DNA from: Aulosira sp. ZfuVER01 | GTDB lineage: Bacteria > Cyanobacteriota > Cyanobacteriia > Cyanobacteriales > Nostocaceae | Direction of reading: 5' to 3' | Length of the DNA: 64,000 nucleotides | NCBI GenBank assembly: GCA_034530615.2 | Contig: JAVRCV020000016.1 | Location: 1-64,000 of the forward strand | Part shown: positions 28,894-37,704 of the stretch, one piece after another | How the letters are laid out: each line of letters begins with the position of its first letter | Numbering within the stretch: the first letter of the stretch is position 1 | Position numbers and translations under genes: made by a program | Notes under the pieces: generated by a model | The model's input: only the letters and a program-made list of their open reading frames with translations | Told to the model about the DNA's origin: nothing | Databases searched by the model: none

Positions 28894-29733
28894 TCAGAGA
28901 ATATTCTGATTTTTCGTTTTCACTCGCTGATATAACTCCTCCATCGTTTCAATAAAAGAGTTATCCTTCCGCCAAAAAGCTGGAAAATCTCCCTGCTTTT
29001 TCACAAGAATTGCCGATACCCCACTTTGATTAGCTACTTCAATTGTTTGTGGTAATCGCTTTGTACCTAACCAAAATTCCCTAACGCTTGGTTTCTGTGC
29101 AATAGATTGCTTTTCTAATTTTGTATACAACGATGTAGATAATTCTAAAGGAATTTCTTTCGTATTCAGTTCTTCCGATAGCGCTTTACCCAAATTTGAC
29201 TCAGCCAGCTTTGCTTGCAGTTCTGTTTTAGTTAATCCCCTTAGTTCAAACAATAAAAATGGATTCTCATCTAACTGCGACGCTACTAAATAATAAACTC
29301 CAGCAATATGCTTACAAGGATTGGCATAATCGGGACAGGAACATCTAGTTTTAAAATCCTTGCTGCTTTGAGGTAATAAATGTAGTCCTAAGTCAGCAAA
29401 CGTATCTTCTATATTTTCTGGTACTTCGTTAAGTAGTAACCGTGAAACAATACTCGCTTTTGAGGAAAGCTTTTGAATCACTTCGCTCCAGCGAGTTTTG
29501 GCAATGGGTGTAATTTCAATTGAAATACTATAAAGTGGAACCGTATAAACACCAAAGTAGGGATTAATTGAACCTTGAACTTGAGCAGTAATTTCATTTT
29601 TATCAACTTCAAAATTTAAAACTTTCCCACCACGAGCATAAGAACGCCCACGTTTGAGTCGGTTATCATCGGTAAATTGTTCTAATGCTTGAATAAAGCG
29701 ATCGCCCCACCAAGTTCGGCTAAATTTAGTCAT
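28894..29733 (-). CDS. SWIM zinc finger protein
   Basis: CSCPDYANPCKH; RLKRGRSYAR. Confidence 0.92.
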   Translation of the reverse strand: MTKFSRTWWGDRFIQALEQFTDDNRLKRGRSYARGGKVLNFEVDKNEITAQVQGSINPYFGVYTVPLYSISIEITPIAKTRWSEVIQKLSSKASIVSRLLLNEVPENIEDTFADLGLHLLPQSSKDFKTRCSCPDYANPCKHIAGVYYLVASQLDENPFLLFELRGLTKTELQAKLAESNLGKALSEELNTKEIPLELSTSLYTKLEKQSIAQKPSVREFWLGTKRLPQTIEVANQSGVSAILVKKQGDFPAFWRKDNSFIETMEELYQRVKTKNQNIL

Positions 29734-29738
29734 AATAT

Positions 29739-32700
29739 TTACTCCAAAATTGCGCTTTTATTTAAGGCGATGAGTTGTTTAAAGGCTTCGTTATCTAATT
29801 CTGTAAGCCAAGATTCATCACTCCCCACAACAGCAGCCGAGAGTTTTTTCTTATCTTCAATCATTTGGTCAATTTTTTCTTCTAGTGTGCCAATCGCCAC
29901 AAATTTATGTACAAAGACGTTCTTTTTTTGACCAATCCGAAAAGCGCGATCTGTTGCTTGATTCTCAACTGCTGGGTTCCACCATCTATCAAAATGAAAT
30001 ACATGGTTTGCTTTCGTGAGGGTAATCCCGACACCGCCTGCTTTGAGTGAAAGGATAAATACAGATGGTTCTGTATCGGAGTCTTGAAATTCCGTAATCA
30101 TCTGTTCCCGACGTTTGCGGTTTGTACCACCATGTAGATAGTAAGTATTGCAGTGTAGGTTGTGCTTGAGATGTTTTTCGATATTTTCGCAAACTTCGGT
30201 AAACTGGCTGAATATGAGTAAACTTTCGCCTTCGGAAATGGCTTCTTCTACCATTTCAGCTAATCGGCTAAGTTTGTGCGATCGCTCAGGAGAAAATTCG
30301 CTATTATCTTGTAAAAACTGAGCAGGATGGTTACAAATTTGCTTCAATTTCATCAAGGTAGAAAGAATTAAACCCTTACGTTGAATCCCTTCAGCCTTTT
30401 GCAATTGTTCCTCAACATCTTTCACCACGACTTCGTAAAGTGATGCTTGTTCTTTAGTCAGGTTGGTGTAGAGTATTTGCTCAACTTTGTCAGGTAAATC
30501 ATTAATGATAGATTGATCGGTTTTCACCCGACGTAAAATTAAAGGTTCGACTAATTTCTTTAGGGTAACTGATTTGACGCGATCGTTATCTTTCTGAATC
30601 GGAACCTCAAAGGATTTGCGAAACTGTGCTTCTTTACCCAAATAACCAGGATTGAGAAAATTAAAAATTGACCATAAATCCAGCAGGCGGTTTTCAACAG
30701 GAGTTCCCGTTAAAGCTAGTCGGTGTTTGGCGGAGAGTTTGAGAATGGCTTTGGTTTGCGCTGCTTTGGGATTTTTGATATTTTGCGCCTCATCTAAGAC
30801 AAGACGTTGCCATTCAACGCTGTTGAGTAGCTTCTCATCTTTGCGAGCTAGGGTAAAGGAAGTAATGACAACATCGTGCTGGAGACAAGCGGCTTTGAAG
30901 TCTGCGGAGTTTTGCGTGCGATCGCTCCCATGATGCACCATACTTTTTAAATGAGGCGCAAACTTGGCAATTTCCTTTTGCCAATTCCCCACAACAGAAG
31001 TAGGCGCAATTAATAACGTAGGTAACAGAGATGCAGAGAGACATATCCCCGCGTCCCCGCGTCCTGATGTCTCCGCGTCACCCCTCCTCCCCCTCACCGC
31101 GTCTTCATAAGCCTCCCTCTCCTGAACCAACCTAGCTATCACCTGCACAGACTTACCTAAACCCATATCGTCTGCAAGACAGCCATTTAATCCCAATTTC
31201 TCTAAATATTGCAGCCAAGAAACCCCACGCTTTTGGTACTCGCGTAAATTACCTTGCAGATTTAATTGTTCGGAAATTGGTTCTAGCTGGGTTTTATCTT
31301 GCAGCTTCGCCATCATTTCCGATAAAACTTCATCGTGTTCAATTTCCCACTCGTCCCCAGCTTCCGCACTGCGTTGCAGAAATTCCAGCAAATTCATCTC
31401 TGGCTGTTCATCGCCGTGAGATTGCCAAAATTCCAACAATTGCTGCATTTTATTACGGTCTAATTCCATCCATTGACCGCGAAAATGCACTAAAGGAGCC
31501 TTAGCATTAATTAATTGTTCCCATTCTTGAGGTGTGACAACTTGCTCACCAATTGCCAACTCATATTCATACTGTACCAGCGAATTTAAACCAAAATAGC
31601 TTTTGCTTTCACCCTTTGTGGGCGCTAATTTTTTACCTGATGCTTTCAGGCGAATTTTGGCACGACGGCGACCTGCGGGAGTGTACCAAGCAGGTACAAT
31701 GACTTTAAAACCTGCGTCTTCCAGCACCCAAGCACTGTCTTGGAGAAAGCCAAACGCCTCTTCTAAAGTTAGTTGCATTCCCGTAGGCTGATCCGTTTCC
31801 AACCCCTGCCATAATTTGGGATACATCCGCGCTGCATAACCTAAATTCAGTAGCAAATGAGTTTCAAAGTCCTTACCAAATTGTTTATGTACTCCCGCTT
31901 TAGCTGTTTTATTCATACTCCAATAATCTGACAAATCCAGCTTCAGCGAAGGGTCTTTTTTACTGGCTACTAAAAATTGCATTTGCCAATTATCTATTTC
32001 TTCAGCAGCAGGAGAATGCAATTGAAAACATAGATGAAAAATAGAATCAGCTTGAGTGCGGGTAATTTTAGTTTTCCATGCCAACCATTGCTGATATTCT
32101 TCTAAAGCAGTCTTTGTTATTAATGGGTTATGTCGATGGGGGTAAAAAGAATATTCAACGAGAGAATCTGCAATTTGTTTATCAAACGCGGCTGTTGAGG
32201 GTGTATGACTGACTATATTTGTGAGGATAGTCTCAGAAAAGTGACGTAATAATGTTTCTCTATCATAAAACTCAATGCTATCGCCAGATGTTGCCGCACC
32301 TGCCACACAAATCAGCGGCATATAATCAATATACTTTTTAATATTTTCTTCGTAGGCAACAGAGATAATTTCCCAAGTCGCGTAAATTTCAAATGGTTTT
32401 GCAGTTGATGACTTGCCTTTCTTCTTAGTTTTTTCTGCTTCTAACTCTCTATATTTCAGCGCTGGAATATATTGGTCTTTAAGGATTACTTGCTTAAAAG
32501 CTTGGGTGTAGTGATACCAAAACAACAAATCCGAACCGAGTTGAACTTCATCTGCGTTGTGCAATGCTAAAAAATGGATATCATTGAGAAGTTTGATAAC
32601 GTTATTTACTTTTTCCGTCTTGGCAGATATGACCGTTTCATAACAATCCACCTGCCAATATTGGAAACCCTCATATTCTTCCGGAACTTCCACTTCTAGA

Positions 32701-32984
32701 TACTTGATTAATTCTGGTGAAGGTAAGGGTTGATTATTGGCAGTTGGTAGTGCAAAGTATTTAGGTAATATGCGTTGACTTAATTGATTAGCTGTTTCTT
32801 TCAACCCTAAAGCTTGCGTTAAAAAAGCAATTAATTCAGCTTTTGCTAAATGTCCAGGATGAATATTTTGCTGATTAGCACGACTTTTTTTGACTATTGG
32901 GGTTTCTATCCACAAATAAAAAGACCCTGGCTGAATAAAGTCAGATGCCGCGTTTGGTATCCAGGTTCCATGAATAACTTTCAT
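29739..32984 (-). CDS. SNF2-family helicase/ATPase
   Basis: LADDMGLGKS, LDEAQ, TGTPVEN, QATDRAFRIGQ. Confidence 0.95.
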   Translation of the reverse strand: MKVIHGTWIPNAASDFIQPGSFYLWIETPIVKKSRANQQNIHPGHLAKAELIAFLTQALGLKETANQLSQRILPKYFALPTANNQPLPSPELIKYLEVEVPEEYEGFQYWQVDCYETVISAKTEKVNNVIKLLNDIHFLALHNADEVQLGSDLLFWYHYTQAFKQVILKDQYIPALKYRELEAEKTKKKGKSSTAKPFEIYATWEIISVAYEENIKKYIDYMPLICVAGAATSGDSIEFYDRETLLRHFSETILTNIVSHTPSTAAFDKQIADSLVEYSFYPHRHNPLITKTALEEYQQWLAWKTKITRTQADSIFHLCFQLHSPAAEEIDNWQMQFLVASKKDPSLKLDLSDYWSMNKTAKAGVHKQFGKDFETHLLLNLGYAARMYPKLWQGLETDQPTGMQLTLEEAFGFLQDSAWVLEDAGFKVIVPAWYTPAGRRRAKIRLKASGKKLAPTKGESKSYFGLNSLVQYEYELAIGEQVVTPQEWEQLINAKAPLVHFRGQWMELDRNKMQQLLEFWQSHGDEQPEMNLLEFLQRSAEAGDEWEIEHDEVLSEMMAKLQDKTQLEPISEQLNLQGNLREYQKRGVSWLQYLEKLGLNGCLADDMGLGKSVQVIARLVQEREAYEDAVRGRRGDAETSGRGDAGICLSASLLPTLLIAPTSVVGNWQKEIAKFAPHLKSMVHHGSDRTQNSADFKAACLQHDVVITSFTLARKDEKLLNSVEWQRLVLDEAQNIKNPKAAQTKAILKLSAKHRLALTGTPVENRLLDLWSIFNFLNPGYLGKEAQFRKSFEVPIQKDNDRVKSVTLKKLVEPLILRRVKTDQSIINDLPDKVEQILYTNLTKEQASLYEVVVKDVEEQLQKAEGIQRKGLILSTLMKLKQICNHPAQFLQDNSEFSPERSHKLSRLAEMVEEAISEGESLLIFSQFTEVCENIEKHLKHNLHCNTYYLHGGTNRKRREQMITEFQDSDTEPSVFILSLKAGGVGITLTKANHVFHFDRWWNPAVENQATDRAFRIGQKKNVFVHKFVAIGTLEEKIDQMIEDKKKLSAAVVGSDESWLTELDNEAFKQLIALNKSAILE

Positions 32985-33849: not shown

Positions 33850-35907
33850 TTACCTGAGATGAGCAGTGCCAGAATTAGCAAAATGGTCGAGGAGTTCGCG
33901 GTGCAGAAAGCGGTAACGCCCACCAACACGCAAGAGTAAGCGCCGTTCAACACAGTAGTTGAGGAATTGGGCAAGATTCCAGGGGATATCACCACTTTGC
34001 CAAAGAACGAGGCGCAGAGAAAAGTGCTGTACACAAGCAAGCCCACCACCTAACCAAAAGCCGAAAAACAGAGCCATAAATAGCCCTGGTAGCAAATATT
34101 GGGGAGAGTTGCGTAATAAAATTCCTGGTAAATCTAGCCAGTCATGCTTTTCTACTAGTCTACGAGCCACTGGAGTCGCCATCATCACAATTACGCCAAG
34201 GGGATAACTCAAGGCTGTTGTCCATAGCATACTCTGTAATGAGTTCCAGATGCCTTGGTTGGGCTGCGATCGCACTTTTAATTCTTCCTTCAGCCCTCTA
34301 ATCAGCCCGAAAATCAGCCCTCCAATCAGCCCTCCAATCAGCCCGAAAATCAGTCCTCCAATCAGTCCTCCAATCAGCCCGACAATCAGTCCTCCAATCA
34401 GTCCTCCACTCAGCCCGACAATCAGCCCCTCGCGGAAACCTGCTAAAAATTTTCGTATTGCGTAGCGAGATATGGAAATTTGAAATGCTTCTACAAGTTC
34501 AATCTTATTTAGCCCGAAAATCAGCCCGAAAATCAGCCCCAAAATCAGCCCCAAAATCAGCCCGAAAATCAGCCCGAAAATCAGCCCGGAAATCAGCCCC
34601 AAAATCAGCCCGACAATCAGCCCGACAATCAGCCCCAAAATCAGCCCGTAAATCAGCCGATAGCGTCGCTGTAAATGTTTAGACTCAATCCAAGTCGGCT
34701 GCATTTGCTCAATTAGCAATTCTACTGTGTTGTTATCTTGCAACCGCTTTGCTATCCAACTTAAAGTGTGGCGGGTTTGCTGCCAACCGGGTTCTGCTGC
34801 CACTGTTTTATACGCCCATTTCCCTTCTTCCTTGTTTTGGCGGCGTTCTTGCTCACGGGTATCTCTCGACAACTGGCGGTCAATATACTTTTCTAATAAA
34901 TCTGCTTTGTTGCTAATTGGCTGCTGGGGATCATACACATCGACTACCAGCTTAATGAACAACGGTACACGCAACAAACCCGGCTCGTTCTCTGAAGTCG
35001 GTTCTAGCAAATTGATTAAATTTGGATTTCTCTCAATCACTGACCATAATTCTGAACTGTTCAAGCTATAGAGATAATCTTGAATTTGGGAGTCAGATAA
35101 AGGTTGGAGACACACCGCACCTCTAAGGTTGTTTAGCTTCTGGTTGACAGCCTCAAATTCTTTGATCCGACAGCAAACTACAACATGGGGATAATGACGG
35201 GCAAATTCATTAAGCTTGATGGTACATTTCTTTTGCCTTTCTAGCCCCAATTCATCTAACCCATCCAACAAAGGTAATAACACCCGTTGTTCTAGCCAAC
35301 CCTCATAAATTTTATATTTGGGTTCTCCTCCGTGTAGTTCATAAAGTTGCTCAATTAACCATTGCTCAATGCTTTGGTTATCATCCTGCCAAGTCGAAAG
35401 CTCAAATAAAACAGGGATGACAGTTTTGGGATTTTGCCGCGCCCCCCACACCAACTGCTCGGCTAAACCCAACAGTGCTGTAGTTTTCCCTGCTCCTGGC
35501 GCACCTAAAATTAGCAGTTTGCCGTTAATATCATCTCTTTCAAATATCTCAATTAGCAGTTTATTGGCATCTATAGTTCCATAATCTTGACCATTAATCT
35601 GCAAACTTCGACTTACCCAAGATAACTGTTCAGCATAAGAGACACTCATGGCAATTCGCTGCTTACCCAAGGTATCAGTCAAGCGTTGACGAATATCCGG
35701 TAACTGTTTTTCTTTGAGCAACCGTTGTCCCCATTCCCAATTAACTTGCGGTGGCTGTGGGTTGCTAAACATCCGCAAGATAATGTTATTGATTGTGACT
35801 TGGTTAGCTTGACTATTTTGAAAACTAACTGCGTCCCGGCTGGCCTGTGTCTGCTGAACTTCACTATTTTGCAGTGAACTATCGCCAATATCTTGATTTT
35901 GCTCCAT
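33850..35907 (-). CDS. NACHT-domain NTPase with C-terminal Gly-Leu-Ile-rich membrane region
   Basis: Walker A GAPGAGKT, Walker B LLPLLDGLDE, (GLIx)n tracts, terminal GGRYRFLH. Confidence 0.92.
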   Translation of the reverse strand: MEQNQDIGDSSLQNSEVQQTQASRDAVSFQNSQANQVTINNIILRMFSNPQPPQVNWEWGQRLLKEKQLPDIRQRLTDTLGKQRIAMSVSYAEQLSWVSRSLQINGQDYGTIDANKLLIEIFERDDINGKLLILGAPGAGKTTALLGLAEQLVWGARQNPKTVIPVLFELSTWQDDNQSIEQWLIEQLYELHGGEPKYKIYEGWLEQRVLLPLLDGLDELGLERQKKCTIKLNEFARHYPHVVVCCRIKEFEAVNQKLNNLRGAVCLQPLSDSQIQDYLYSLNSSELWSVIERNPNLINLLEPTSENEPGLLRVPLFIKLVVDVYDPQQPISNKADLLEKYIDRQLSRDTREQERRQNKEEGKWAYKTVAAEPGWQQTRHTLSWIAKRLQDNNTVELLIEQMQPTWIESKHLQRRYRLIYGLILGLIVGLIVGLILGLISGLIFGLIFGLILGLILGLIFGLIFGLNKIELVEAFQISISRYAIRKFLAGFREGLIVGLSGGLIGGLIVGLIGGLIGGLIFGLIGGLIGGLIFGLIRGLKEELKVRSQPNQGIWNSLQSMLWTTALSYPLGVIVMMATPVARRLVEKHDWLDLPGILLRNSPQYLLPGLFMALFFGFWLGGGLACVQHFSLRLVLWQSGDIPWNLAQFLNYCVERRLLLRVGGRYRFLHRELLDHFANSGTAHLR
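34299..34657. repeat. Two coding 12-bp tandem arrays (~34299-34428 and ~34511-34657)
   Basis: Units such as AATCAGCCCGAA encoding F/L/V/G-G-L-I on the minus strand. Confidence 0.9.
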
Positions 35908-35929
35908 TACCCATAATCAATAAGAATCT

Positions 35930-36373
35930 CTACATTCCAATGAGTTTTGCCGCTACTCCTAACCAGGGAGTAATAGCTTGAAAAACTTCCTGTCCTGTTT
36001 GCCACAAGCTTTTTCCGGCTTCTGTGGTTTCTTTCATCGTTTTGAGAGTCTCATTGACTTGTTTGAGATTCTGCCCTACCAAATCTTTGTTCGGTTCTTC
36101 CTTGTTGACTTCGCGCTTGGCGGGGCGTAAATAGTCCAGTAGTTCATCTTTTTCATCTGGAGTTAGTGAAGCAGCTTTAATGGCTGTTTCCAAATTCTCC
36201 AATTGCTTAACTACATCGGTGTTAGTGATTTGCTGCTGTGTGTCTAGTTTGCTCGATTGACTTTGCTGAAGATCGCGTCCTGCCTGTCCTTGTTGAATCG
36301 CACTCCCAGTTAAATTTACACCACTAATACTTTGAGATTGGCTTGGTTGTTCTGGTTGTTTTTTACCAAACAT
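35930..36373 (-). CDS. Small protein with Q/S-rich N-terminal motif and helical C-terminal domain, directly upstream of the NACHT gene
   Basis: 147 aa; 22-bp gap to NACHT gene on the same strand. Confidence 0.8.
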   Translation of the reverse strand: MFGKKQPEQPSQSQSISGVNLTGSAIQQGQAGRDLQQSQSSKLDTQQQITNTDVVKQLENLETAIKAASLTPDEKDELLDYLRPAKREVNKEEPNKDLVGQNLKQVNETLKTMKETTEAGKSLWQTGQEVFQAITPWLGVAAKLIGM

Positions 36374-36546: not shown

Positions 36547-37704
36547 CAGGGCTGTTTCATTCCACAAGGGCAAGAAGTTTGTCAATATCATGAGAGAGAA
36601 ATCTTTGAGCAATTGTGATGGAAGTATGACCATTTCGGCGCAGTATGTTGAGAGCGATCGCTCTCAAAATGGAAAGATTTGCGGGAGCGTTGCCAAGACG
36701 GATTGTGGAATTATCTTCTTTGAAAACAACATCTTTTACCCAATGGAGGGAATTTTCGATACCCCAGTGACCGCGAATACAGAGAGCGAACTCCTTCGCT
36801 GTACAAATCAAACTGCTAATGTAACAAACAATTTCATGATATTTCTTACCTTTTCTTGTGCCAGTTCTTTCGACCCTGACTAAAGATTGTATTCCAGTCC
36901 ATGCCGGGTCAATTCCATTGACATCATGGAAAACTTCGACAATACGTGTTGTAAATCTATCTCTAGTTCTTTCTGACTCAACTAAACGAGAAGTTGGTTT
37001 TTTGGTGGCGGCAATGCCTTGAATATGGCTATGTAGTTTGGGCTGATTCTCTTTAACAGCAATGACATAATCATTGCCACTTTCTATAATTATTTGGCAA
37101 GTTTTTTTTGACAATGTAAGGAATCAAAGCTCAAAACCACACCTTCTAGACCCAATGCTGTGACTAGCTCTTGTACAACTTGGATTTCGCTTTTGAGTTG
37201 GTTCTCAAATTTCTCCATCCCGATAACCAGCCCTTTTTTGCCAGCGAATACTGATACTATGCTCACAAAATTCTGATGAGATGAACTATAGTTTTGCACT
37301 GTACCCTTAATACTTTTACCGTCTATTGCACACCATTCCGATACTTCTAAATCCACATATTTCTTTGCCCACTCATTAAATTTTTGAGCCAGTTTCTCGA
37401 AATCCACTCCCATGACTACACGTCGGATTGTCGAATATGAGGGAACTCCATGTTTTTGAATTCCAAATATTTCTATGAGCGCCAAACGATGCCGTTTGAC
37501 AAAATCCCCCCATGCACGATACCCGACATATCCACTCATGGTGCCCATTATTACAAATAGCAACACTAGCCAAAGTTGATGTCTTCGACCATCTGTCGTT
37601 CTCAAATCTTCAACCTGCTGTAGTTGTTCAATCAAATTTGCACCCATGATTTTTTCCCCTCAACACTTGCAATTTTACTTGTTTTAGGGAATGAAACAGC
37701 CCTG
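36547..37704 (-). mobile_element. ISAs1-family insertion sequence; transposase split into 37090-37647 and 36557-37114
   Basis: Perfect 17-bp TIRs cagggctgtttcattcc / ggaatgaaacagccctg; AIDGK, DSLHCQ, VKENQ, IRGHWGIENSLHWVKDV. Confidence 0.93.

Follow-up and report, generated by a model that had tools for sequence, protein, structure and literature searches.

A 23-residue motif shared by a small helical protein and the adjacent membrane NACHT NTPase of Aulosira: a candidate amyloid-like signalling pair of cyanobacteria

Two adjacent genes of Aulosira sp. ZfuVER01, encoding a small protein with a four-helix domain and a membrane-embedded NACHT NTPase, share a 23-residue motif at the N-termini of their products, and this motif very probably couples the two proteins. 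The pair lies in the window analysed here, the 64,000 nucleotides at positions 1 to 64,000 of contig JAVRCV020000016.1 (assembly GCA_034530615.2). We read it as a two-gene NLR-type conflict cassette, for defence or cell death, in which the NACHT would act on a membrane-directed effector by amyloid-like templating; to this entire chain we give a probability of about 0.5. For amyloid-like templating by the motif, suggested by sequence resemblance, the case is close to evenly balanced.

The gene pair and its shared motif

The two genes, the spacer and both copies of the motif are located as follows.

35930-36373, minus strand: gene of the small protein, motif followed by a four-helix domain, 147 aa (open reading frame (ORF) and translation)
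33850-35907, minus strand: gene of the membrane-embedded NACHT NTPase, 685 aa (ORF, translation, Pfam, AlphaFold)
35908-35929, no strand: spacer between both genes, 22 bp (from ORF coordinates)
36272-36340, minus strand: motif on the small-protein side, residues 12-34, QSQSISGVNLTGSAIQQGQAGRD (shuffle statistics, 37-pair alignment)
35833-35901, minus strand: motif on the NACHT side, residues 3-25, QNQDIGDSSLQNSEVQQTQASRD (shuffle statistics, 37-pair alignment)

The original prediction had matched the two neighbouring N-termini through 11 identities in 23 positions without gaps, and the ORFs, their strand, their coordinates and the alignment were all reproduced, as was the gap of 22 bp between the genes. 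Residues 12-34 of the small protein aligned with residues 3-25 of the NACHT at an ungapped BLOSUM62 score of 50, and the best ungapped segment between both N-termini scored 56. Shuffling the N-termini with their composition preserved gave 23.7 ± 4.6, and 0/2000 shuffles attained 56; the similarity thus held against composition-shuffled controls. Two wider framings of the shuffle gave 26.7 ± 4.7 and 27.3 ± 4.7, with the observed score attained by 0/1000 and 0/500, respectively. BLASTP with compositional adjustment returned the N-terminal match at E = 0.002 and every other segment at E > 2, and we therefore regard the two proteins as unrelated outside the motif, in agreement with the earlier claim. 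When a hidden Markov model (HMM) of the motif was run against the 124,482 six-frame ORFs of the organism's own 8.03-Mb genome, it found two proteins only (E 3e-9 and 8e-6), the next-best ORF being at E 1.6.

At E ≤ 1e-3 the search found 206 homologues of the small protein; all source-named organisms among them are cyanobacterial, and the 120 matches listed show 60-96% identity. One genome per species was retained, which gave 37 further loci holding the small gene. In all 37, from several cyanobacterial orders, the motif starts the next downstream gene on the same strand, so that together with the window the NACHT-side motif is present in 38/38 loci and homologous pairs do share it. The 74 motifs of the 37 pairs align over 23 columns without a gap, and 20 diverse homologues of the small protein all keep Q12, S13, Q14, Q30 and A31. 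Walker A was present in 35/37 first downstream ORFs; at one locus (L019) the contig ends. In the 37 loci the first called downstream ORF lies -4 to 404 bp from the small gene, some ORF starts being over- or under-extended. Two loci hold broken copies of the pair: in L027 the NACHT-side motif is interrupted by a stop codon and the small gene is truncated, and in L037 a frameshift follows just after the motif.

No third gene is conserved around the pair in the 38 loci, where the best true neighbour occurs in 5/38; other ORF clusters, of 4-11 loci each, lie on the opposite strand inside both genes, as judged by example coordinates. The window subtype was found in 4/401 sampled cyanobacterial genomes. 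The pair looks like a patchy, mobile-looking two-gene cassette with a distribution typical of defence systems.

Helical-domain family, motif co-variation and amyloid-like features

A search with residues 46-147 of the small protein against 1.84 billion representative proteins returned 221 proteins with the helical domain at E ≤ 1e-3. Of the 150 matches listed, 100 are below 200 aa and the other 50 are longer; in 147 of the 150, no more than 15 residues separate the end of the domain from the C-terminus. Just before the domain, 92 of the 121 listed proteins of at least 125 aa have a 30-residue stretch in which Q/N/G/S/T make up at least 60%. The 50 long proteins carry the following in front of it.

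pentapeptide repeats: 18
CHAT: 7
TIR: 3
AbiTii: 1
TRADD-like_N: 1
mannosyltransferase (PMT): 1
coiled-coil protein, probably spurious: 1
nothing known: 18

The motif directly precedes the C-terminal four-helix domain, and it is internal where TIR, CHAT or pentapeptide repeats are fused in front. Since these fused relatives carry it internally, before the helical domain, the N-terminal position is not the invariant. Of the signalling pair that had been proposed, with the motif N-terminal in both partners, the pair-specific coupling motif was retained and the N-terminal position as a fixed property was given up.

As judged from the profile searches, the helical domain defines an undescribed cyanobacterial family. 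No description of it was found in the literature on bacterial amyloid signalling, Bell/BASS, membrane bNACHTs and cyanobacterial NACHTs; bioRxiv supplements, outside this comparison, may hold relevant tables. About 90 weak profile matches in the 401 genomes (E 1e-6 to 1e-9), mostly ORFs of 450-650 aa and nearly all in small f34/f42 genomes (1.6-2.5 Mb), were left out of the family count; they may represent a helical protein without relation to the family, or else a very remote relative.

Two further loci of the organism's own genome, both outside the window, hold distant copies of the domain. On contig C37 (1257-5386, minus strand) a protein of 172-185 aa ends in such a copy (E 6e-4) and overlaps the start of a 1195-aa Walker-A NTPase; the N-terminal motif common to both differs from that of the window pair (...[ST]IG......FNQxQ...), with a gapped local score of 42 against 26.1 ± 5.0 for shuffles, 21/2000 of which attained 42. 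In sequence these genes look like a second pair of the same kind. On contig C7 (168498-170552, plus strand) the distant copy, a motif-plus-helix module (E 4.8e-4), forms the end of a pentapeptide-repeat protein of 685 aa whose middle is hydrophobic over a long stretch, and the contig stops 213 bases further on.

The motif changes in step in both partners, strongly so across subfamilies and weakly within the window's own subtype. In the 37 pairs, position 17 is Q facing Q in 18, and L, M, A or I facing L or M in 19. Beyond these, the downstream gene starts with a matching motif variant in 10/17 genome loci with a strong match and in 7/9 resolved metagenome loci (of 18 fetched). Variants common to the two sides include QIGGIAGxDLT (L082), Q[LM]GQAGRDLTQT (L087), GQVGQAG (L085) and VQGDNNRAV (L052). 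A score matrix of 17 pairs placed the cognate partner at the top in 9 cases, and the cognate score sum was attained by 0/100,000 permutations; ten 'type B' pairs had a mean of 59.0 for cognate against 38.3 for non-cognate combinations, likewise with 0/100,000 permutations, figures that overstate the effect because related pairs are not independent. In these motif scores, the 'type B' result shows a specificity beyond family membership.

The partners concerned are of several types, namely NACHT (L038, L040, L041), iSTAND (L048) and FGE-sulfatase (L047, L052). Membrane helices are abundant in the type-B NACHTs as well; by hydropathy scan the iSTAND partner of L071 and the FGE-sulfatase partner of L072 are not membrane proteins. 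At L071 (915-5976) the motif-plus-helix gene is followed by genes for an iSTAND protein (PF19995), a Walker-A protein of 336 aa and a protein of 827 aa, a layout that resembles the 'ternary systems' in the passages of Kaur et al. compared. At L070 (5986-9621, minus strand) one small gene is followed by two tandem NACHT genes, each with its own copy of the motif; the first encodes 298 aa with two motif pseudo-repeats and the second 743 aa with membrane helices.

In composition, the motif is enriched 3.5-4.4x in Q, 3x in G (small side) and 2.1x in N (NACHT side), S being enriched as well; K is reduced to 0.05-0.29x and L to 0.35-0.45x, and P is absent. V on the NACHT side and I on the small side are not enriched. 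This composition matches the bias of BASS motifs, which, in the parts of the source compared here, are about 25 aa long, favour Q, N, G, V and I and contain little K, P or L; BASS1 and BASS3 are fibril-making motifs, with ordered fibrils for BASS1, and G-phi-Q-phi-G is the signature of RHIM, PP and BASS3 (10.1101/2020.01.06.895854). The QAGRD core of the motif is the BASS1 core in the sequence sets of PMC8086366, where the README maps C01 to BASS1. Relatives of the motif meet the RHIM/PP/BASS3 signature, with G-V-Q-I-G in L038 and G-V-Q-V-G in L040. The L038 partner has two motif pseudo-repeats, and 'type C' is a tandem repeat. According to the text compared, the bacterial motif screens examined the C-termini of effector genes only (10.1101/2020.01.06.895854); they therefore could not find a motif placed before the helical domain, and the family was missed.

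Architecture of the two proteins and their surroundings

The remaining features of the small protein and the NACHT are listed below.

35933-36226, minus strand: four-helix bundle of the small protein, residues 50-147, helices 51-67, 72-89, 96-116 and 118-145 (AlphaFold2)
35933-35992, minus strand: hydrophobic C-terminal end of helix 4, residues 128-147, QEVFQAITPWLGVAAKLIGM (hydropathy, conservation)
35767-35832, minus strand: second beta-prone stretch of the NACHT, conserved, residues 26-47, AVSFQNSQANQVTINNIILRMF (alignment A3)
35062-35514, minus strand: NACHT NTPase core, residues 132-282, Walker A G135-T142, Walker B L210-E219, LLPLLDGLDE (Pfam PF05729)
33997-34680, minus strand: membrane region of the NACHT, residues 410-637, three helical hairpins, mostly GLIxGLIx repeats (hydropathy, AlphaFold)
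33865-33975, minus strand: C-terminal winged-helix end of the NACHT, residues 645-681, ...CVERRLLLRVGGRYRFLHRELLDHFA (conservation, AlphaFold)

AlphaFold2, with 82 sequences, modelled residues 50-147 of the small protein at block pLDDT (predicted local distance difference test) values of 92-96 and left residues 1-49, including the motif, unstructured at values below 50. The C-terminal end is the sole hydrophobic stretch (Kyte-Doolittle 1.06 over 129-147). Within it W137, G139 and A141 are invariant in alignment A1 of the small protein, W137 and G139 being nearly so family-wide. Pfam assigned no family to the small protein, with only sub-threshold hits to CCDC-167 (E 0.011) and the fungal 'Goodbye' domain (E 0.17), neither of which was used; NCBIfam gave nothing above its cut-offs, and a Pfam scan of 57 homologues gave no family in common. 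Foldseek against the PDB returned no match at E ≤ 0.001, the best (E 0.39) being copper storage proteins and Avd of a diversity-generating retroelement. The best match of the VIA wide fold search, YicC at Z 11.4 (root-mean-square deviation 3.8, 104 aligned), fell below the value of about 13 required for helical bundles, and further matches at Z 10.9-8 included TTYH, designed bundles and others. Because the fold searches were weak, the domain is read as a generic four-helix bundle. A profile search of PDB sequences with the 57 homologues found designed or unrelated helical proteins only (best E 0.0014), and matches in the ESM Atlas were confined to cyanobacterial clusters without a name, with a TCAD2 cluster, at 0.88, below lead level. 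Residues 40-133 matched PADLOC PDC-M14B at E 3.9e-9 over profile positions 169-261 of 267, that is, in the C-terminal third of the B protein only; the NACHT had no match to PDC-M14 models at E ≤ 0.01, and the name PDC-M14 was not found in the literature searched.

The assignment of the larger protein as a NACHT was confirmed by Pfam PF05729, which matched residues 132-282 with 32.0 bits (E 1.3e-7), above the cut-off of 26.7. In the orthologue alignment both GAPGAGKT and LLPLLDGLDE are invariant, the invariant columns being G135, G140, K141, T142, D215, G216, L217, D218 and E219. That it is embedded in the membrane, as had been proposed, is backed by hydrophobic segments at 415-473, 493-539 and 605-627 and by six long helices at 410-440, 442-463, 481-513, 515-543, 552-586 and 590-619 of an AlphaFold model built with 67 homologues. 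The length of the membrane region differs among orthologues. Residues 645-681 were modelled as helix, beta-hairpin and helix and are nearly invariant in ...RVGGRYRFLHRELLDHFA; since the six helices precede this conserved winged helix, with which hydropathy agrees, we place the membrane part inside the NACHT module. Residues 1-53 are unstructured in the model (pLDDT 32-38). The stretch at 26-47 varies, with 11 residues missing in L016, a different linker in L030 and L035, and absence or replacement in some orthologues. The Pfam scan of the NACHT protein gave no effector domain and no C-terminal repeats (WD40, TPR, LRR). Opposite its membrane region, two ORFs with SPPISPxI and SARKSAxK repeats (34250-34682, plus strand) almost certainly mirror the repeats coding for GLIxGLIx and are not genes.

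In other members of the NACHT family the N-terminal slot is filled by EAD10 (Pfam), which was found in 30 NACHT homologues among the 120 matches listed. In the three carriers that were scanned, EAD10 occupies residues 1-99 and is followed by the same ...SESSxVDWDWG... continuation; because this identical continuation lies behind it, EAD10 replaces the motif in sister NACHTs. EADs are described, in the passages compared, as small elements on a core NTPase and a neighbouring effector, proposed to interact homotypically (PMC7159879, PMC8195603). A protein of TPR-GreA/B-C-PIN architecture is cited there with EAD10 in front in Fischerella (PMC8195603), and E. coli Agp is described as having the same architecture preceded by BASS11, a motif that is amyloid by experiment (10.1101/2024.11.07.622273). 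By analogy, this juxtaposition suggests that folded adaptors and amyloid motifs can fill the same slot. Islands with EAD10 were seen at G260:C4:159047-191523 (10 genes) and G144:C1:2711033-2729405 (6 genes), with products of 82-1158 aa.

In the surroundings of the pair, an insertion sequence (IS)-type transposase stands directly upstream of the small gene (36557-37647, minus strand), split into two overlapping 185-aa ORFs (DDE_Tnp_1_assoc, then DDE_Tnp_1) and probably frameshifted. Downstream of the NACHT gene (28894-32984, minus strand) are genes for an SNF2-family helicase of 1081 aa (DUF3670, SNF2-rel_dom, Helicase_C) and for a SWIM zinc-finger protein of 279 aa. A scan of the locus for promoters and terminators gave counts equal to or below those of shuffles.

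Proposed mechanism, alternatives and biological meaning

In the proposed mechanism, the NACHT would be held in the membrane by its three helical hairpins and display the motif on a disordered tail of about 50 residues. By analogy with its family, a membrane-associated cue would cause NTP-dependent oligomerisation, which would gather the N-terminal motifs. The clustered motifs, matched to those of the partner as described above, would then capture the motif of the small protein, the product of the upstream gene and presumed effector, most likely in a shared cross-beta (amyloid-like) stack. The helical bundle might thereby be remodelled or arrayed, which would let the hydrophobic helix at its C-terminus attack the membrane. 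A conflict system is supported because the partners (NACHT, iSTAND, FGE-sulfatase) and the fusions (CHAT, TIR, AbiTii, TRADD-like) belong to such systems.

Several observations weigh against this mechanism. The co-variation seen across subfamilies did not extend to the fine scale, as cognate and non-cognate identity were equal within clades of the window subtype (9.72 versus 9.65, p 0.38; 8.42 versus 8.39, p 0.49). The Q/L switch at position 17 coincides with a single phylogenetic split and may have occurred only once. Some residues are conserved on one side only, for example V versus S at position 8 and GG versus N-S at positions 12-13, which would also fit a heterotypic docking interface. 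At 7/17 genome loci and 2/9 resolved metagenome loci, a motif-bearing downstream gene was absent or none was resolvable. The window copy itself lacks G-phi-Q-phi-G, with A-I-Q-Q-G on the small side and V-Q-Q-T on the NACHT side; the likeness to BASS1 is confined to the pentapeptide, the flanking hydrophobic positions being out of register; and none of the printed BASS7-10 sequences, a longer sample for BASS9 and few examples of the other three, resembles the motif. AlphaFold leaves the motif unstructured, and its putative amyloid nature is drawn from resemblance. The effector role suggested for the helix bundle likewise comes with generic fold matches only.

An alternative that we take seriously and yet find doubtful keeps the cassette and its logic but makes the motif a conventional adaptor, homotypic or heterotypic: an effector-associated domain shrunk to a peptide, which folds on binding into a small, finite beta-sheet without amyloid or prion-like propagation. 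The side-specific residues and the missing fine co-variation speak for it, as do the very high conservation of the small protein across orders (among the matches listed) and the presence of EAD10, a proposed homotypic element in the passages compared (PMC7159879, PMC8195603), in the same slot of sister NACHTs. However, 23 residues are short for an autonomous fold and are disordered in both models; BASS1 and BASS3, fibril-making in the text compared (10.1101/2020.01.06.895854), have the same kind of composition and the same QAGRD and G-phi-Q-phi-G cores; and some partners (the L038 NACHT, type C) carry the motif in tandem pseudo-repeats. The occurrence of EAD10 in Fischerella and of BASS11 in E. 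coli Agp on one architecture suggests a slot that can suit either kind of adaptor, as far as the passages compared go (PMC8195603). That the similarity is functionless, a low-complexity coincidence or the leftover of a local duplication, could be argued from the Q/S/N-rich N-termini and from the E value of just 0.002 for the single pair; it is scarcely tenable and is already refuted by the conservation and co-variation data, given the shuffles, the retention of the motif at every locus, its restriction to the pair within the genome and its co-variation across subfamilies.

The small protein might instead be a regulator, an inhibitor or a membrane tether, with killing done by the glycine-zipper-like GLIxGLIx helices of the NACHT. 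In the membrane repeats of the NACHT every fourth residue is small, and repeats of this kind can form pores. Moreover, the hydrophobic end of the small protein spans about 19 residues and is moderately hydrophobic, and the four-helix domain, where it follows true effectors (TIR, CHAT), need not be the toxic part. This reading is nevertheless unlikely. The small protein occupies the side on which the TIR and CHAT effectors sit, and the motif-plus-helix module also pairs with the iSTAND protein of L071 and the FGE-sulfatase of L072; because these are not membrane proteins by hydropathy, the role of the module cannot depend on a membrane NACHT.

The logic of such a cassette, with the small protein as effector, is already known from Bell/BASS-NLR, Bab/Agp, HET-S/NWD2 and the EAD principle, and the comparisons made here refer to passages of the papers cited. 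The Bell/BASS-NLR pairs (10.1101/2020.01.06.895854) are alike in their adjacent collinear genes, their multicellular cyanobacterial hosts, and a motif of some 25 residues, with much Q/N/G and little K/P/L, that a NACHT or NB-ARC protein carries at its N-terminus and a small helical protein of about 100 aa bears as well. In those pairs the motif follows the helical domain and the hydrophobic helix is N-terminal, whereas here the motif comes before the domain and the hydrophobic helix is C-terminal. The helical domain has no detectable similarity to any named domain (Pfam, PDB sequences), and fibril formation, described for BASS1 and BASS3, is putative here. Bab/Agp with BASS11 (10.1101/2024.11.07.622273) likewise combines a small helical membrane-directed protein and a large sensor through a shared terminal motif, and its abortive-infection logic would apply here by analogy. 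The Agp architecture occurs elsewhere with EAD10, just as the present NACHT family alternates between EAD10 and the motif; the sensor, however, is TPR-GreA/B-C-PIN there and a membrane NACHT here, where the order of the motif is also reversed.

In HET-S/NWD2 of Podospora (PMC9815663, PMC7885112), too, a motif at the N-terminus of an NLR matches that of a neighbouring pore-forming helical protein and is unstructured until templated, as the present motif is disordered in the monomer models. That system is fungal, with an N-terminal HeLo domain and a C-terminal two-repeat prion domain, whereas repeats here, where present, lie on the NLR side (L038). The EAD principle, in the passages compared, similarly places the same non-catalytic element on a core NTPase and on the product of an adjacent gene, with partners including iSTAND, FGS and NACHT; unlike the EAD families, the motif has no Pfam EAD match at E ≤ 1 and is a 23-aa peptide instead of a folded domain of about 80 aa. 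The NACHT itself resembles the 'TM regions' class, which likewise has several membrane helices inserted in the NACHT module and a proposed intramembrane or periplasmic sensing role; that class is described generally, without a partner protein or shared motif in the passages compared. Relative to the tripartite NLR architecture, the C-terminal repeat sensor is replaced by six membrane helices before the winged helix. What is new is the order, with the motif first and the hydrophobic helix last, together with the helical domain, a motif family outside the BASS sequences compared, and a receptor NACHT with membrane helices.

We tentatively propose as possible that the motif and the four-helix bundle with its hydrophobic C-terminal helix form an unrecognised cyanobacteria-wide cell-death module, a 'mirror-image Bell', which would be switched by many sensors through amyloid templating. 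The sensors would comprise membrane NACHTs, other NACHTs, iSTAND ternary systems and FGE-sulfatase lectin proteins, each with pair-specific variants of the motif. If this is true, motifs that join QAGRD (BASS1) and G-phi-Q-phi-G (RHIM/PP/BASS3) would link these amyloid families. The bacterial catalogue BASS1-11 is incomplete, because this conserved family combines a reversed layout with a new helical domain and a receptor embedded in the membrane. Signalling from an NLR-like receptor to a neighbouring executioner by an amyloid or adaptor is a theme common to fungal, animal and bacterial immunity, and the compact pair of 147 aa and 685 aa suits the study of signalling by membrane NACHTs. The co-varying motif variants form a natural series for the specificity of templating or docking, and the helical domain offers a handle for finding more conflict systems of cyanobacteria.

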